The notes under the pieces are model-generated. The model had not been told where the DNA came from. It saw only the letters and a program-made list of their open reading frames with translations, and ran no database searches. DNA of 64,000 nucleotides from a phage. Numbering within the stretch: position 1 is the stretch's first letter; every line of letters starts with the position of its first letter. Of the stretch, positions 53,543-63,055 are shown piece by piece. The stretch is taken from sequence record PV946933.1. One strand, 5' to 3'. The position numbers and the translations under genes were made by a program.

Positions 53543-53582
53543 GTTTACACGTTGATGAGGTAGTGATACTATTACCTCATCA
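53543..53582 (+). promoter_or_regulatory. early promoter with stem-loop (PeSL-like) copy 1
   Basis: GTTTAC, then tgatgaggta-GTGATACTAT-tacctcatca perfect inverted repeat. Confidence 0.6.
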
Positions 53583-53602: not shown

Positions 53603-53875
53603 ATGAAAACTTTCAAAGAGTTTATCGTTGAATCTGCTCTTAATGAAGAAGTAAAAATTAGCAAATCTGTTAAGACTATGATTGATAATATAAATCATCT
53701 TTATAACATTGATTTGACGAATCATGTAACGTTAGGAAATAAACGAAACTTTTTTGTATTTGATATTTCAGAACTTGATCAGAATCAAATTAATAATATT
53801 GAACGCTTTGCTAATGAAAAAGGTCTGCGTCACGAGACGGCTGGTTATAAAAAATATGCAATTTATTTAAAATAA
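53603..53875 (+). CDS. internal-protein-like head protein with capsid-targeting leader (ipI position, 90 aa)
   Basis: N-terminus MKTFKEFIVE; position next to 57B. Confidence 0.6.
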   Translation: MKTFKEFIVESALNEEVKISKSVKTMIDNINHLYNIDLTNHVTLGNKRNFFVFDISELDQNQINNIERFANEKGLRHETAGYKKYAIYLK

Positions 53876-53878
53876 ATT

Positions 53879-53920
53879 GTTTACACGGTGGTTTAGTTGT
53901 GATACTATTACCCTATCAAA
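53879..53920 (+). promoter_or_regulatory. early promoter with stem-loop (PeSL-like) copy 2
   Basis: GTTTAC...GTGATACTATTACCCTATCAA. Confidence 0.55.
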
Positions 53921-53942: not shown

Positions 53943-54251
53943 ATGAAAACATATCAAGAATTTATCAATGAAGCGGCTGCACCAAAGACATTCGTTATTA
54001 ATACTCAGGCGAGTCTTGATGATGAGTACGCGGAGGCAATTCTGAGGTCACTTGCTAAGAACGGCGTTGAAGTAATCGCCTCGGACTTTAAGAAAGGGGC
54101 TTCCGAGATGTTTATTTCTATAACTAAAGGATCTAAAGCTAAAATCAAATCATCATTCGGTGTTGCTCGTACCGATCAAATCGACAATCATGACTTTAAA
54201 CAAACTGGTGTTAAACGGCAGAACACAATTGCATCACGCGGAATAAAATAG
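53943..54251 (+). CDS. IPII-paralogous internal protein with capsid-targeting leader
   Basis: MKTYQEFINE leader; body aligns with the ipII product (PKTFVINTQASLDDEYAEAI vs PKVFQICSQGNLDKEYVDAI). Confidence 0.65.
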   Translation: MKTYQEFINEAAAPKTFVINTQASLDDEYAEAILRSLAKNGVEVIASDFKKGASEMFISITKGSKAKIKSSFGVARTDQIDNHDFKQTGVKRQNTIASRGIK

Positions 54252-54888: not shown

Positions 54889-55176
54889 ATGATTCTTTAT
54901 GCGAAAGTATCATCCATTGAAAATGGATATAAATATGATCAAGAAGCAGCTAAAGCCTTGATTGATGATTATGGCATTTTAACATGTTTTGAAGTTGAAA
55001 AGGTTTACATTGACCGTTCATCTTCTCAAGTTAAATTAGTGAAGGAAGACCGTAAATTTAATACAGTAAATTTTGATTTCTTTATTGAAACAGAAAAAGG
55101 TCCTCTTGAATATGATATTTTCAAGAATCCTTTGGGTCTTGAATGCATCGTAAATATGTATTATCATAAATGGTAA
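54889..55176 (+). CDS. hypothetical protein (95 aa)
   Basis: coupled to the preceding ORF. Confidence 0.5.
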   Translation: MILYAKVSSIENGYKYDQEAAKALIDDYGILTCFEVEKVYIDRSSSQVKLVKEDRKFNTVNFDFFIETEKGPLEYDIFKNPLGLECIVNMYYHKW

Positions 55177-55273
55177 ATATGCTTTAAGAATTATTTGTTA
55201 TTATTAACTCATATCGCACTGATTAATACCCTCTATCATCAAGGGTTCTTGTTTGAGAGCCTTTGTTAATAAT

Positions 55274-55346
55274 TGGGAATTAGCCAAGTTGGTAAGGCAT
55301 AGCATTTTGACTGCTAGATGCAAAGGTTCGAGTCCTTTATTCCCAG
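55274..55346 (+). tRNA. tRNA-Gln (anticodon UUG)
   Basis: cloverleaf read by eye: acceptor tgggaat/attccca, anticodon loop ttTTGac. Confidence 0.85.
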
Positions 55347-55347
55347 C

Positions 55348-55434
55348 GCGAGAATGGTCAAATTGGTAAAGGCACAGCACTTAAAATGCTGCGGAATGAT
55401 TTCCTTGTGGGTTCGAGTCCCACTTCTCGCACCA
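55348..55434 (+). tRNA. tRNA-Leu (UAA), type II, CCA encoded
   Basis: acceptor gcgagaa/ttctcgc; loop cTTAAaa; long variable arm. Confidence 0.85.
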
Positions 55435-55439
55435 AATTT

Positions 55440-55513
<74 letters not shown>

Positions 55514-55523
55514 ATTTAATTTA

Positions 55524-55597
55524 CTCCGTGTAGCTCAGTTTGGTAGAGCGCCTGATTTGGGATCAGGAGGTCCAAGGTTCAAATCCTTGTATGGAGA
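55524..55597 (+). tRNA. tRNA-Pro (UGG)
   Basis: tagctcagtttggtagagc D-arm; loop tTTGGGa. Confidence 0.85.
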
Positions 55598-55599
55598 CT

Positions 55600-55689
55600 G
55601 GAGGCGTGGCAGAGTGGTTTAATGCACCGGTCTTGAAAACCGGCAGTCGCTCCGGCGACTCATAGGTTCAAATCCTATCGCCTCCGCCA
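55600..55689 (+). tRNA. tRNA-Ser (UGA), type II
   Basis: acceptor ggaggcg/cgcctcc; loop cTTGAaa; long variable arm. Confidence 0.85.
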
Positions 55690-55694
55690 GTTTT

Positions 55695-55770
55695 GCTGAT
55701 TTAGCTCAGTAGGTAGAGCAACTCACTTGTAATGAGAAGGTCGGCGGTTCGATTCCGTCAATCAGCACCA
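55695..55770 (+). tRNA. tRNA-Thr (UGU)
   Basis: acceptor gctgatt/aatcagc; loop cTTGTAa. Confidence 0.85.
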
Positions 55771-55771
55771 A

Positions 55772-55846
55772 GGCCCTGTAGCTGGAAGGTTCAAGCAAGC
55801 GACTCATAATCGCCAGATGGTGGTTCAATTCCACCCAGGGCCACCA
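55772..55846 (+). tRNA. tRNA-Ile (CAU, lysidine type) or Met
   Basis: acceptor ggccctg/cagggcc; loop cTCATAa. Confidence 0.75.
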
Positions 55847-55859
55847 AATTAAGAATTAA

Positions 55860-55946
55860 GGGGAGTTATCCCGTAGAGGTAGCGGTGTGGACTGTAAATC
55901 CATTGTCATTGCGACTCGGGTGGTTCGACTCCATCACTCCCCACCA
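55860..55946 (+). tRNA. tRNA-Tyr (GUA), type II
   Basis: acceptor ggggagt/actcccc; loop cTGTAaa; long variable arm. Confidence 0.8.
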
Positions 55947-55950
55947 ATTT

Positions 55951-56025
55951 GGATGTGTAGCTCAATGGCAGAGCGATCGCCTGTTAAGCGATTGGTTATA
56001 GGTTCGAATCCTATCACGTCCGCCA
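55951..56025 (+). tRNA. tRNA-Asn (GUU)
   Basis: acceptor ggatgtg/cacgtcc; loop cTGTTAa. Confidence 0.8.
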
Positions 56026-56029
56026 AATC

Positions 56030-56105
56030 CGAGGCATAGCTCAGAAGGAAGAGCAAGGACCTTCTAAGTCCTGGGTCGTAGGTTCGATCCCTACTGCCTC
56101 GACCA
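56030..56105 (+). tRNA. tRNA-Arg (UCU)
   Basis: acceptor cgaggca/tgcctcg; loop cTTCTAa. Confidence 0.85.
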
Positions 56106-56121
56106 ATTAAGTGAGGAAAAT

Positions 56122-56472
56122 ATGAAAGGTAATGTTTATTTAGTAGTTCATGATTTAACATTCTATTTTAATCACAATGACACTGTTATTTCTGAACGTG
56201 TAATTAATTTACTTTATCAGCATGCAGATTATGTTTATGTCGAAAACGAATACGGTCATTGGCAATTTCTCAAAAATCGTTCATTTGGTTTAGATGGTTA
56301 CGAATACTTTGAACGTAAAGACCTTTTAGATAAAATTCCATTATCTACACAATATCAAAATCACAAGTCTTTATATAAATGCCGTCCAATTCGAAATGCT
56401 GAATCTGCGTATGAAGTAATTGATTTATGGCGTAAACGTCGTGGACAGGTTGATGCTTTAAAAGAATACTAA
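56122..56472 (+). CDS. hypothetical protein (116 aa) immediately after the tRNA cluster
   Basis: GAGGAAAA RBS; no recognisable motif. Confidence 0.5.
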   Translation: MKGNVYLVVHDLTFYFNHNDTVISERVINLLYQHADYVYVENEYGHWQFLKNRSFGLDGYEYFERKDLLDKIPLSTQYQNHKSLYKCRPIRNAESAYEVIDLWRKRRGQVDALKEY

Positions 56473-56559
56473 GAAACCGGGTCGCTATCGGTAAGTCGTC
56501 GGACTGATGTTCCCTGGAGTATAGTTTCTCCCACAGTTTTACTGTGTTCTGATTCTTTA

Positions 56560-56730
56560 CTATCACAGCAGAAACGGCGCATCAAATTATCGATTCGAGG
56601 AAATATCTTTGCCGTAAGCCGAGTAGCGTTTTTGACGGAACGTTCGGATATGGTCGAGATATGGCCTTTTAAAAATATTAAGTAGCGTCAACTGCTTAAT
56701 AACCGGGTTCGAATCCCGGCGTTTCGTACA
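56560..56730 (+). ncRNA. candidate small stable RNA with tRNA-like 3' module
   Basis: T-arm ccggg-TTCGAAT-cccgg followed by a 7-nt strand (cgtttcg) complementary to cggaacg at 56636-56642; no ORF; boundaries approximate. Confidence 0.35.
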
Positions 56731-56779
56731 AACACTTGCCTTAGCAGGTGGAACCCCGACAAGGTTGCCGCAAGGCTTA

Positions 56780-56806
56780 GCCCCGACCGAAAGGTTGGGG
56801 CTTTTT
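56780..56806 (+). terminator. rho-independent terminator gccccgacc-gaaa-ggttggggc plus TTTTT
   Basis: 9-bp stem, GAAA loop, T5 tail. Confidence 0.7.
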
Positions 56807-56808
56807 AG

Positions 56809-56816
56809 TATAAATA
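56809..56816 (+). promoter_or_regulatory. late promoter TATAAATA upstream of a CTS-bearing gene
   Basis: motif 40 nt before the ATG at 56856. Confidence 0.5.
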
Positions 56817-56855
56817 TAGTAGTGTATTAAATCACGAATTAAAACAGGAAATAAG

Positions 56856-57329
56856 ATGAAATCATATGCTCAATTTTTAAATGAAGTGGTGTTAAATGAA
56901 GCATCCGCTTCAGATGTTCGCGCTGTAGCAACTGCTGCTATTAAAGCTGGTAAATATTCTTATAAAGATGCTTCTGACGAATCCCGGTACAAGTTCTACG
57001 ACGATATGAGAGCTGAAGGCTTTGTGGGTAACTATGTTACCACCGCCTGGAAAAGTCTGGTTGCTACTGGTGCGGCTTTCGAAAAACCTTCCGGTAAACC
57101 TGCTCCTAAAGCAGATCCTAAAGCTGCACAAGAAAAAAATATTGTTAAAGGAATTATCGCTAAATATGAAGCTATCCTTAAAGAGCTTTTAGTAATTAAA
57201 ACCGAAGGCCAAAAATTAGCCCGTGCCTATAGTTTCAAAGATAATCCACATGCTCATGACCTAGAGTATGTTGAAGATCTCCAAAAAATCATCAAAGACC
57301 GCATTTGGTCTGCTAAACAAATCAAATAA
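56856..57329 (+). CDS. internal-protein-like head protein with capsid-targeting leader (157 aa)
   Basis: N-terminus MKSYAQFLNEVVLNE. Confidence 0.6.
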   Translation: MKSYAQFLNEVVLNEASASDVRAVATAAIKAGKYSYKDASDESRYKFYDDMRAEGFVGNYVTTAWKSLVATGAAFEKPSGKPAPKADPKAAQEKNIVKGIIAKYEAILKELLVIKTEGQKLARAYSFKDNPHAHDLEYVEDLQKIIKDRIWSAKQIK

Positions 57330-57337
57330 CATTCTTA

Positions 57338-57365
57338 GCCTCGACCGAAAGGTTGGGGCTTTTTA
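57338..57365 (+). terminator. rho-independent terminator gcctcgacc-gaaa-ggttggggc plus TTTT (repeat of the one at 56780)
   Basis: stem-loop plus T-run; one mismatch relative to the upstream copy. Confidence 0.7.
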
Positions 57366-57454
57366 GTTTGAATCGCATAGAGAATGCTGTTACGGATAAT
57401 AACAAAGTAATAAATAATTAATAACTGACCGATAAATTATTTCAAGGATTTTAA

Positions 57455-58018
57455 ATGAAAACCTATGCCGAATTTTTAACCGAAGCAGCAAAATTACCAT
57501 CTGAAGCAGAACTTACTAAAGTATTCTTCCAATTGGACCCAAAAGACCGTGGCGATTTTCTTAAGTGGAAAGCTAAAGCTATTGAAATGTATAACATCGA
57601 TAATAGTTCTTTTACGATGAGTCAAGAAAATAAATTCAATAAAGCATTTTTCAAAATTTCTAAGAAATTAGCATCTGGCGCTCAGGTTCCTAAATCTGCA
57701 TTAGCTACTCCTGAACGTGCACCTGTTAAAATTTCTAAGAATATGTTCGACACTAAAAAATACGTTAATGCTTTGAATAAAGCTCTTGATGCATTGGATG
57801 ATGCAAAGAAGGCAGCCCGTGATCTTCAAGACGTGTACACCGATTTTGATCGTAAAACTAAAGGTTCTATTTCAAATAGCGAACGCAATAGTGTAAGTGT
57901 TTATTCTGATAGCCTTGATGTTCTTGGCGATGCGTATACTGAAATTAAAAATCGTATTAACACCGCATCTAAGCTAAAAGCTGCCGTAGAAGCTATAATA
58001 ACTAAACTAGGTAAATAA
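57455..58018 (+). CDS. internal-protein-like head protein with capsid-targeting leader (187 aa)
   Basis: N-terminus MKTYAEFLTE; Lys/Ala-rich body. Confidence 0.6.
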   Translation: MKTYAEFLTEAAKLPSEAELTKVFFQLDPKDRGDFLKWKAKAIEMYNIDNSSFTMSQENKFNKAFFKISKKLASGAQVPKSALATPERAPVKISKNMFDTKKYVNALNKALDALDDAKKAARDLQDVYTDFDRKTKGSISNSERNSVSVYSDSLDVLGDAYTEIKNRINTASKLKAAVEAIITKLGK

Positions 58019-58026
58019 TTTTAAAT

Positions 58027-58051
58027 CCCTATCTAAATGATAGGGCTTTTT
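58027..58051 (+). terminator. hairpin ccctatc-taaat-gataggg-c plus TTTTT
   Basis: seen directly. Confidence 0.65.
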
Positions 58052-58185
58052 GATATCTAGGCCTTTCTGGACCTCTCTAAGAATCATTTAGTTTCTACCC
58101 TTTATAATATATTATCCTATCCTTTAATTGCCCCTCCCTGTCCTAGAATTCCCTAAAACTTTTTAAAAAATTTTTTCACAAAACT

Positions 58186-58217
58186 GTTTACATCCCCGTT
58201 CTTCCATGGTACTATAC
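58186..58217 (+). promoter_or_regulatory. early-promoter-like GTTTAC ... TGGTACTAT
   Basis: -35 GTTTAC at 58186-58191; extended -10 at 58207-58217. Confidence 0.5.
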
Positions 58218-58259
58218 AACTATCAACTACTGATACAGAAAAACAACTTGGAGAATGAA

Positions 58260-58523
58260 ATGGATAATTACGGCGAACTGTTCAACTTCTTTATGAAATG
58301 CGTTTCAGAAGATTTCGGTCGTACAGTGAATGATATTAAAGTCATCGGTCCTGACCATCCGATGTTTGAAACTTACGCAGTAATGGGTAATGAAGACGGT
58401 CAGTGGTATACTGTAAAAGTTGTGATTAATATGTTCACTGCTGAAGGTTATGTTAAACTGTCTTCTAAAGTTTATCATGATAATGATGAAATCGCAGAAG
58501 AATATTTCAATAATATGAAATAA
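58260..58523 (+). CDS. hypothetical protein (87 aa from ATG at 58260)
   Basis: GGAGAA RBS; the ORF-track start at 58206 falls inside the promoter -10. Confidence 0.5.
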   Translation: MDNYGELFNFFMKCVSEDFGRTVNDIKVIGPDHPMFETYAVMGNEDGQWYTVKVVINMFTAEGYVKLSSKVYHDNDEIAEEYFNNMK

Positions 58524-61799: not shown

Positions 61800-62117
61800 A
61801 TGAAAACGTTTAAAGAATTTATTGCAGAATCTGCCCAAGGACAACGTGTAGAAGGCGGTTATATCTGGATTGAACAAGTTGAGCCGCCAAGTCGCACTTC
61901 TACAGGTAAATGGAAAATCACTGTTGATGGTCCTGGTGGTAAACGTAGGACTCTTAAAGAAATTAACGGGTACTATGAAGAAGCTCTTTCTGACGCGGGT
62001 ACTTATATGATGCAAATCATGATTAAAAACCCAGAAAATCGTTTTGCGGCTAGAGTTTTCCGCCGTATTGGAAATAAGCTTTATGATGCATATTCTAAAA
62101 ACTTCCCTAAAGAATAA
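61800..62117 (+). CDS. internal-protein-like head protein with capsid-targeting leader (105 aa)
   Basis: N-terminus MKTFKEFIAE; basic body. Confidence 0.6.
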   Translation: MKTFKEFIAESAQGQRVEGGYIWIEQVEPPSRTSTGKWKITVDGPGGKRRTLKEINGYYEEALSDAGTYMMQIMIKNPENRFAARVFRRIGNKLYDAYSKNFPKE

Positions 62118-62132
62118 AAATAAAGGAAATAC

Positions 62133-62711
62133 ATGAAAACCTATAAAGAATTTATCGCTGAAGCTTCTGTAGTAAAGGCCAAAGGCATTAATAAAGATGA
62201 GTGGACTTATCGTGGCGGAAACGGCTTTGACCCTAAAACTGCTCCACTTGAACGATATCTAGCCACAAAAGCTTCTGATTTTAAAGCCTTCGCCTGGGAA
62301 GGACTTCGCTGGCGTAACGATCTAAATATTGAAGTTGACGGACTTAAATTTGCTCATATTGAAGATGTTGTTGCTAGTAACTTAGACGCAGCTTTTGTTA
62401 AAGCCGACAGTGATCTTCGTCGCTGGAATTTAAAACTGTTCTCTAAACAAAAAGGCCCGAAGTTTGTGCCTAAAGCCGGTAAATGGGTCATTGATAATAA
62501 ATTAGCTAAGGCTGTCAACTACGCTGGTCTTGAATTCGCCAAGCACAAATCATCATGGAAAGGTCTTGATGCAATGGCTTTCCGTAAAGAATTTGCCGAT
62601 GTTATGGCTAAAGGCGGCTTTAAGGCAGAAATAGATACCTCTAAAGGTACGTTTAAGGACGCTAATGTTCAGTACGCTTATGCCGTTGCTAATGCAGCCC
62701 GTGGTAATTAA
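62133..62711 (+). CDS. ipIII: internal protein III
   Basis: MKTYKEFIAE leader; 192 aa; position next to e; recalled similarity to T4 IPIII. Confidence 0.8.
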   Translation: MKTYKEFIAEASVVKAKGINKDEWTYRGGNGFDPKTAPLERYLATKASDFKAFAWEGLRWRNDLNIEVDGLKFAHIEDVVASNLDAAFVKADSDLRRWNLKLFSKQKGPKFVPKAGKWVIDNKLAKAVNYAGLEFAKHKSSWKGLDAMAFRKEFADVMAKGGFKAEIDTSKGTFKDANVQYAYAVANAARGN

Positions 62712-62752: not shown

Positions 62753-63055
62753 ATGAAAACATTTAAAGAATTTATCACTGAAGCAAAAGCCCCGAAGGTT
62801 TTTCAAATTTGTTCACAAGGAAATTTAGACAAAGAATACGTTGACGCCATCGTAGCAAGCATTGTCAACCAAGGCGTGCAAGTAGATGCAGTTGAATTTA
62901 CCAAAGGCCCTACCTTTAATATCGTTGTATCTAAGGGTTCTTTGGCTAAAATTAAAAAGGCCTGGGGTGTTATGAGAGCTTACCAAGTAGATGATTCTGC
63001 TCCCGGGCCGAAAGTACGAATGAATACCCTTAAGGGAGGCCGTGAATACGTTTAG
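62753..63055 (+). CDS. ipII: internal protein II
   Basis: MKTFKEFITE leader; 100 aa; position. Confidence 0.75.
   Translation: MKTFKEFITEAKAPKVFQICSQGNLDKEYVDAIVASIVNQGVQVDAVEFTKGPTFNIVVSKGSLAKIKKAWGVMRAYQVDDSAPGPKVRMNTLKGGREYV

Follow-up and report, generated by a model that had tools for sequence, protein, structure and literature searches.

The phage DNA analysed here (64,000 nt of sequence record PV946933.1, hereafter the window) encodes, between its stable-RNA genes and e.8, two small proteins that each begin with a capsid targeting sequence (CTS). The interval from the terminator of the tRNA-rnaD-rnaC unit to the early promoter of e.8 is probably a slot for optional genes, filled in this case by two tandem cassettes, which carry open reading frame (ORF) 1 (157 aa, 56856-57329) and ORF2 (187 aa, 57455-58018). 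The best explanation, which we regard as likely when taken as a whole, is that the cassettes are paralogous, that they are gained, lost and exchanged by recombination at terminators, and that their products are packaged by means of the CTS, ejected and act in the manner of the internal proteins (Ips) of T4. Each cassette is a self-contained unit, in which an ORF with its Shine-Dalgarno site lies between a late-promoter-like octamer and an intrinsic terminator. The window belongs to Tequatrovirus (T4-like phages), hundreds of whose genomes match the region at 93-97 % identity, the closest being vB_EcoM_HZ_ZJUN4 (97.4 % identity). All features of the window described below are on the + strand.

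ORF1 is flanked by two copies of the 34-nt sequence CTTAGCCCCGACCGAAAGGTTGGGGCTTTTTAGT, copy 1 at 56776-56809 and copy 2 at 57334-57367, with a single mismatch (C to T; 33/34 identical). A first-pass annotation of this DNA had described a repeat pair differing at one base, at 56777-56810 and 57335-57368, around a 157-aa CTS-bearing ORF at 56856-57329. The pair, the ORF coordinates and the start of the product (MKSYAQFLNE) were confirmed, the repeats beginning one base further to the left. Likewise, the second CTS-bearing ORF reported at 57455-58018 (MKTYAEFLTE) does end at a terminator of its own, with a weaker hairpin. The repeat has exactly two matches in the 64-kb window when up to three mismatches are allowed, against an expectation of 0.00 (100 shuffles). 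Each copy scores as an intrinsic terminator, its 10-bp stem being capped by a GAAA loop and followed by a T-run (stem-loops at 56779-56802 and 57337-57360). Folding energies (RNAfold) are -20.3 kcal/mol for copy 1, -17.3 for copy 2, in which the C to T change converts a G-C pair to G-U, and -11.3 for the ORF2 terminator (58027-58051; hairpin 58027-58045, with a 7-bp stem, a 5-nt loop and a T-run). The ORF2 terminator is 73 % identical to the 34-nt repeat.

Copy 1 lies 50 nt past the mature 3' end of rnaC, whose trailer continues as far as this hairpin, and it aligns with copy A of RB32 and with the single T4 terminator downstream of rnaC. The latter alignment shows that copy 1 did not arrive with an inserted element: it is resident, and terminates the tRNA-rnaD-rnaC unit. 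Copy 2 terminates the ORF1 cassette, which thus has at its end a duplicate of the resident terminator, and this would be the reason for the 34-nt repeat. The repeat itself is already on record, since the RB32 GenBank entry describes RB32ORF133c as 'flanked by 34 bp imperfect direct repeat'; a full-text literature search found no paper mentioning RB32ORF133c, RB69ORF149c or phrog_2280. Across the phage collection, the 34-nt query matched 1127 places in 684 records (among the records listed, one with three places and the rest with one or two). The repeat is confined to the slot locus, with at most two copies per Tequatrovirus genome sampled. When the content between copies was catalogued in related genomes, only ORF1 alleles were found, never other cargo, which does not bear out the idea of the repeat pair as a bracket for varied genes. 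A scan of IMG/VR with the 20-nt hairpin core gave 34 loci, mostly in unrelated phages with a look-alike hairpin, and about a dozen in T4-like genomes.

All four possible states of the slot occur among relatives. In T4 and Yersinia phage PST the slot is empty, the terminator leading straight into the e.8 promoter region. RB32 and phiD1 carry ORF1 only, RB32 having one 474-nt gene (RB32ORF133c) between two repeat copies. ORF2 alone is found in EP01, ECO07P1, T4_ev151, FL23, FL44, SP1 and ESh36. In EP01 the rnaC terminator is joined straight to the ORF2 leader, and a query made of this junction was matched in a single piece in at least seven phages; EP01-type genomes correspond to the window with exactly one 558-bp repeat unit left out. 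Both genes are present in the window, G50, REP4 and many others, and 128 records cover at least 80 % of the 1.9-kb query. In every state, T4-like sequence resumes inside the T-run of the last terminator (GGGCTTTTTG.TATCTAgGCC). These assignments rest on junction-specific queries, as slot sizes taken from BLAST spans are confounded by variation in e.7. Of the deposited phage genomes, 512 contain ORF1 and 165 contain ORF2, a rough estimate being that about two thirds of relatives have ORF1 and about a quarter ORF2. In phage vB_Eco_F26, ORF1 is annotated as a truncated 336-nt coding sequence (CDS) and gives a two-piece tblastn match, which fits a frameshift, and about 350 extra bp with a 123-nt CDS lie between ORF2 and e.8. 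Two-piece matches to ORF1 or ORF2 in OE5505, Pu-Krd-SF4 and ECO07P3 may likewise represent pseudogenes or sequencing errors.

To judge from these sequences, it is very probable that cassettes are gained and lost at the terminators, and this turnover is best explained by phage homologous recombination on 10-34 nt of terminator homology. The crossover site would be a short stretch of such homology, down to the core GGGGCTTTTT, at which T4-type homologous recombination would delete, insert or transfer cassettes. A different view is that the repeat copies are alike only through constraint or convergence on terminator function and have no role in rearrangement, the gene differences stemming from unrelated illegitimate events. 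In the cassette-free phages T4 and PST, copy 1 is retained for a function of its own, and GC-rich hairpins with the same GAAA-loop core are present in unrelated viral contigs, e.g. AATTGCCCCGGCCGAAAGGTTGGGGCTTTTTCTT in 11 IMG/VR loci. However, the identity of the two copies extends beyond the stem, to 5' CTTAG and 3' AGT, EP01-type genomes differ by precisely one repeat unit, and all junctions examined fall in the hairpin or T-run. Moreover, both copies read CCCCGACC in Tequatrovirus (GA) and both read CCCCTTCC in Mosigvirus (TT), although the TT variant places an internal mismatch in the terminator stem and so weakens it. Such co-variation by lineage, at a cost to the stem, indicates that the two copies have apparently been homogenised within each lineage. 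Convergence without any part in rearrangement is therefore considered highly improbable, and recombination at the terminators is preferred.

Comparison with Mosigvirus PhAPEC2, which has the same two-gene layout as the window, shows that a single cassette can also cross between genera. Synonymous divergence (dS) between the two phages is 1.61 for the 116-aa ORF upstream of rnaD, 1.33 for ORF1 and 0.64 for e.8, and is 0.138 for ORF2. The block of high identity (~57350-58050) runs from copy 2 to the ORF2 terminator, and beyond it identity drops to 32 %. The low dS of ORF2, together with block edges at terminators, thus marks a recent intergeneric transfer, in which the ORF2 cassette moved between Tequatrovirus and Mosigvirus with breakpoints at terminators.

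The suggestion, made in the first-pass annotation, that the gene between the repeats was inserted or exchanged through them therefore holds for the site of cassette gain and loss, but not for the ORF1 allele of the window, which was exchanged within the gene. This allele is rare (11 records at ≥95 % identity) and differs from the common allele, represented by G50, only across codons 16-80. Here dS between the window and G50 is 1.14 (the N-domain), as against 0.19 for codons 81-157 (the C-terminal half). Three proteins from metagenome or short-read assemblies are chimeric in this region. P0010 has a trna.3-like N-terminus joined to the last 31 residues of ORF1, P0026 a KP01-type N-domain joined to e.8-like sequence, and P0027 an unrelated N-terminus joined to the ORF1 N-domain. 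These may be deletion joints across the region or assembly artefacts.

The N-termini of ORF1 and ORF2 conform to what is known of the CTS from T4. The first 10 residues of IPIII suffice for targeting, mutagenesis has assigned residues 4 and 7 (Y/F and F in IPIII) to targeting and residues 8 and 10 to processing, and the prohead protease gp21 cuts after L/I-x-E (PMC9026906). Both ORF1 and ORF2 have Y4 and F7, and both have a gp21 site at residues 8-10 (L8-N-E10 in ORF1, L8-T-E10 in ORF2). ORF1 contains a second LNE at residues 13-15 (L13-N-E15). This doubled protease motif (FLNE-VVLNE) is a feature of Tequatrovirus ORF1 alleles, whereas Mosigvirus alleles have a single FLTE and are five residues shorter; the doubling could mean redundant cleavage sites or a longer propeptide. 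Among 2467 ATG-initiated frames in the window, a strict CTS pattern is found in seven, all on the + strand and all at three internal-protein loci. The predicted mature forms have a mass of 16.3 kDa, an isoelectric point (pI) of 9.2 and a charge of +5 for ORF1, and 19.7 kDa, pI 9.5 and +9 for ORF2. Lysine far exceeds arginine in both, as in the IPII and IPIII of the window. With these pI values and four presence/absence states, the two proteins share the small, basic and polymorphic character of the Ip class. In addition, the ORF1 homologue of Yersinia phage phiD1 (fD1), g140, is marked PPAP in a liquid chromatography-tandem mass spectrometry analysis of purified virions (Table S3, PMC8309999); the products of the neighbouring e.8 and g138 are not in that virion list. 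A search for virion data on ORF2 found none. The paper on fPS-65 and fPS-90 contains no proteome. Packaging through the CTS is considered probable.

The shared N-terminus might instead be no working targeting signal, and represent a patch of DNA homology (leader plus the first 30 nt) through which unrelated genes could be exchanged, or a translation-initiation module, the products being cytoplasmic accessory proteins. In DNA, the two cassettes are ~76 % identical over their leaders and first codons, intragenic breakpoints occur directly past the CTS, and no annotator has called these genes Ip, including the RB32 team, who named Ip4, Ip5, Ip7 and Ip9. Against this, a CTS-like N-terminus is retained in every distant family member found, with bodies down to 28-46 % identity. 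These distant members vary in nucleotides and at residues 2-3, 5-6 and 9, and yet keep the positions defined by mutagenesis, namely an aromatic residue at 4, F7, L/I/V8 and E10. The virion-associated homologue in phiD1 and the likeness in composition to known Ips point the same way, and a DNA patch without targeting function is regarded as improbable. Homology of the two ORFs to T4 IPIII was considered and rejected, as BLASTP aligns only 10-12 N-terminal residues.

The bodies of the two proteins, previously described as novel, belong to one existing family. ORF1 matches phrog_2280 ('unknown function') with E 3.1e-54 (residues 1-157 against profile positions 1-172 of 178) and ORF2 with E 1.4e-52 (residues 1-180 against 1-177), and the two are distant paralogues. 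When a broad family profile was aligned with ORF2 by hhalign, the probability was 85.5 % and E 5.7e-6 over 81 C-terminal columns. The leaders, first codons, last codons and terminators of the two cassettes are ~75 % identical, and the cassettes are read as an old tandem duplication. Ratios of non-synonymous to synonymous substitution rates (dN/dS) are 0.11-0.22 for ORF1 and ORF2; therefore, both are under purifying selection and are real genes. AlphaFold predicts the same organization for both: the CTS forms a helix and is followed by a small, variable N-domain, also helical, then by a disordered Pro/Lys linker and, at the C-terminus, by a long and conserved helical hairpin (mean predicted local distance difference test score, pLDDT, 72.8 for ORF1). 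Structural matches were limited to generic helical hairpins, and Foldseek against PDB gave nothing at E≤0.001. Pfam yielded nothing above threshold, BFVD returned the family itself plus one protein of Serratia phage PS2, and an exhaustive HMMER search of 1.84 billion representatives returned 11 proteins.

Upstream of each ORF there is an octamer resembling the T4 late promoter. The consensus TATAAATA at 56809-56816 overlaps the end of copy 1 and stands 39 nt 5' of the ORF1 ATG; AATAAATA at 57409-57416, a possible and weak variant, stands at the similar distance of 38 nt from the ORF2 ATG. In most cassette-bearing genomes the T-run of the hairpin runs directly into TATAAATA, while T4 is without the octamer. 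RB32, G50, LF82-35 and Klebsiella phage KP01 share the junction GGGGCTTTTTAGTATAAATA, which T4 lacks, and AATAAATA is kept in EP01 and is also present 5' of the PhAPEC2 ORF1 allele. Both octamers are putative late promoters. A promoter scan revealed no sigma-70-type site between either repeat copy and the following ORF. A sigma-70 or MotA-type middle promoter before ORF2 was likewise considered and rejected, as no sigma-70 site was returned by the scan and no MotA box was seen by eye.

A pathway from late expression to ejection can be proposed on the basis of sequence and T4 precedent. Transcription would start late in infection from the octamer adjoining the upstream terminator, and ORF2 may additionally be transcribed by read-through of the weakened copy 2. 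The CTS would recruit the proteins into the scaffolding core of the prohead, where gp21 would trim them after Glu10. The basic, lysine-rich mature proteins (16 and 20 kDa) would stay with the DNA and be ejected into the next host, where they might act as Ip1-3 do and block host defence nucleases. Ip1, Ip2 and Ip3 inhibit GmrSD type IV restriction enzymes, a different one in each case (PMC12373910). By analogy, a specific anti-defence role for ORF1 and ORF2 is a tentative proposal, to which we give somewhat less than even weight.

The proteins could also be packaged and yet serve as general DNA-associated internal proteins that neutralise charge and aid the condensation or ejection of DNA, rather than acting on a specific target in the host. 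Their mature forms are basic and lysine-rich, the lysines of internal proteins are described in a review as contacting DNA phosphates (PMC3012670), and the fold is a simple helical one with generic helical-hairpin matches only. Furthermore, ORF2 is near-invariant (96-98 % identity across 165 records), unlike an arms-race gene, and this fits a general role at least as well as an anti-defence one. Nevertheless, the genes are dispensable, all four presence/absence states being found in viable phages, and the three T4 Ips that have been characterised each turned out to be a specific inhibitor. The N-domain alleles of ORF1 are deeply diverged and shuffled between family members, as expected of a specificity module. 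A purely general role is thus thought rather unlikely, and an Ip-like action is preferred. A further possibility, which is speculative and on the whole doubtful, is that the members of phrog_2280 constitute a modular class of their own among injected proteins, encoded at an unrecognised third Ip locus. The C-terminal hairpin would be a scaffold (e.g. for oligomerisation or DNA association) and the swapped N-domain a specificity module directed against defence systems other than the targets of Ip1-3. The GGGGCTTTTT-TATAAATA junction would then be a 'late' counterpart of the PeSL (promoter-early stem-loop) cassettes discussed below, used also for non-Ip cargo in other T4-like genera.

Several observations weigh against the overall explanation. 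About eight TATAAATA octamers per strand would be expected from composition (an estimate), and 10 and 13 are observed in the window; ORF2, moreover, has only the variant octamer AATAAATA. Late expression is therefore putative. The relationship between ORF1 and ORF2 was accepted only once the broader family profile had been built: an ORF1-only profile gives 27 % probability against ORF2, BLASTP of ORF1 against ORF2 aligns just the first 10 residues, i.e. the CTS, and the ORF2 model is of low confidence (mean pLDDT 62.9). The phiD1 proteome is unspecific: it counts 113-137 of 277 gene products, DenV and lysozyme e among them, as particle-associated, and the match of g140 is therefore supportive but weak. 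Not all exchange at the locus is accounted for by the repeats, since the allelic breakpoints between the window and G50 lie inside ORF1, just past the CTS and at the linker. For each event, the end states cannot tell insertion from deletion. Finally, promoter use, packaging of ORF2, N-terminal cleavage, ejection and target are inferred.

By sequence criteria, ORF1 and ORF2 resemble T4 IPI, IPII and IPIII and the T-even Ip4-Ip13 in their 10-residue N-terminal CTS with an aromatic residue at 4, F7 and an L/I-x-E gp21 site. Like the T-even Ips, they give small, basic, lysine-rich mature proteins that are non-essential, variably present and unrelated in their bodies to other Ips, and they are encoded beside the tRNA/e region. 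T4's own Ips occupy two loci (PMC12373910). In contrast, ORF1 and ORF2 are situated at a third locus, from the rnaC terminator to e.8, rather than at the ipI or the e-ipIII-ipII locus. They also differ from known Ips in being two-domain helical proteins with a Pro/Lys linker, belonging to phrog_2280 and annotated as hypothetical. RB32ORF133c and RB69ORF149c, both hypothetical in GenBank, are direct homologues of ORF1 and ORF2 at the same position, and their records recognise neither the CTS, the paralogy nor the cassette polymorphism. The repeat (in the RB32 record) and phrog_2280 as a catalogued family were already known.

PeSLs are mobile regulatory cassettes of T4-type phages (PMC2839356, Arbiol et al. 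2010; PMC4122927, Comeau et al. 2014). As with PeSLs, accessory ORFs in a variable region are flanked by short repeated motifs with a terminator stem-loop of the GGGG...CCCC type, and the phage recombination system makes use of short homology. Insertions and deletions cross over inside the motif, as seen at the T4, RB32, EP01 and window junctions, with which the PhAPEC2 block edges agree. However, neither repeat copy is accompanied by a sigma-70 early promoter, TATAAATA and AATAAATA being there instead. In addition, the repeat is not dispersed but limited to one locus (two copies in the 64-kb window), and one copy is resident, serving as the terminator of a stable-RNA operon. The cassettes are thus not PeSLs in the strict sense, while the recombination logic is the same. 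There is also some likeness to the morons of lambdoid phages, in that a promoter-like element, a gene and a terminator lie between conserved neighbours and are present or absent among close relatives. Unlike lambdoid morons, the present cassettes belong to a lytic phage, they have a putative late promoter of the phage in place of a host-type one that is active in lysogens, and their cargo bears a CTS.

In more distant T4-like phages the slot holds different members of the family or other cargo. That of Mosigvirus LF82-35 contains a single 208-aa gene (MYTFNEFLAE...) and that of Klebsiella Jiaodavirus KP01 a 177-aa gene (MKFKEFLAE...). The N-domain of the KP01 protein is ORF1-like (63.5 % identity over ORF1 residues 13-75), and its C-terminal half resembles the LF82-35 protein by eye, a DTPDLY motif being common to both. 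In a 170-kb T4-like contig, IMGVR_UViG_2706795408_000001 (from ~3553 downwards, - strand), a protein-coding gene is followed by only a 50-nt rnaC trailer and hairpin, TATAAATA, an ORF for a predicted 184-aa membrane protein without CTS, and a different hairpin. Two sister contigs are without this 611-bp unit, both junctions of which read GGGCTTTTTTATA.

To the left of the slot, two CTS-bearing ORFs at the ipI locus (starts 53603 and 53943) are separated from the tRNA genes by homologues of trna.4, trna.3 and trna.2. The tRNA genes number ten (55274-56105), as against eight in T4, those for Met, Tyr and Asn being present and that for Ile absent. T4 carries the homing endonuclease gene segB inside its tRNA cluster; the window instead has a 116-aa ORF similar to RB69ORF150c (56122-56472), between tRNA-Arg and rnaD. 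The rnaC (species-1 RNA) homologue (56590-56728) is 97.8 % identical over the full 139 nt of annotated T4 rnaC, whereas in the adjoining rnaD (species-2 RNA) homologue (56472-56581; 76.7 % identity to annotated T4 rnaD by blastn) a central segment (~56510-56560) is replaced relative to T4. Rfam (E≤1, 55000-58400) detected tRNAs only, with no family for rnaC, rnaD or the hairpins. To the right, the early-type promoter of e.8 (58187-58215) and the e.8 homologue (58260-58523) anchor the slot, in a layout that is the same in T4, RB32 and G50. They are followed by e.6, e.5, nudE, lysozyme e and three CTS-bearing ORFs, including IPIII and an IPII-like gene.

An early-promoter module (TTTACA, a 17-nt spacer with TG, TACTAT) at 53544-53572, 53880-53908 and 58187-58215 stands 5' of both ipI-locus ORFs and of e.8, and is reminiscent of the repeated regulatory cassettes of the PeSL type. 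In the RB32 record, a '43 bp direct repeat' is noted around Ip7/Ip9, in a place equivalent to the ipI-locus modules. Besides ORF1 and ORF2, five CTS-bearing ORFs are found in the window (53603-53875, 53943-54251, 61800-62117, 62133-62711 and 62753-63055), giving seven in total at three loci. Those at 53943 and 62753 both match phrog_2667 (internal head protein), and the 105-aa ORF at 61800 (MKTFKEFIAE) falls in phrog_3966 ('unknown function') and is another unrecognised candidate Ip.

The locus provides a clean, datable case in which single genes of T-even phages are gained, lost and exchanged by way of a few tens of bases of terminator homology. Because T4's three Ips each disarm a different GmrSD-type enzyme (PMC12373910), the uncharacterised Ips of related phages form a ready list of candidate anti-defence proteins. 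To judge from their sequences, ORF1 and ORF2 are candidate additions to this class of injected internal proteins. They are common, are annotated as hypothetical, lie outside the two known Ip loci and occur in all four natural combinations, so that the natural state variants amount to near-isogenic sets of phages for plating tests.

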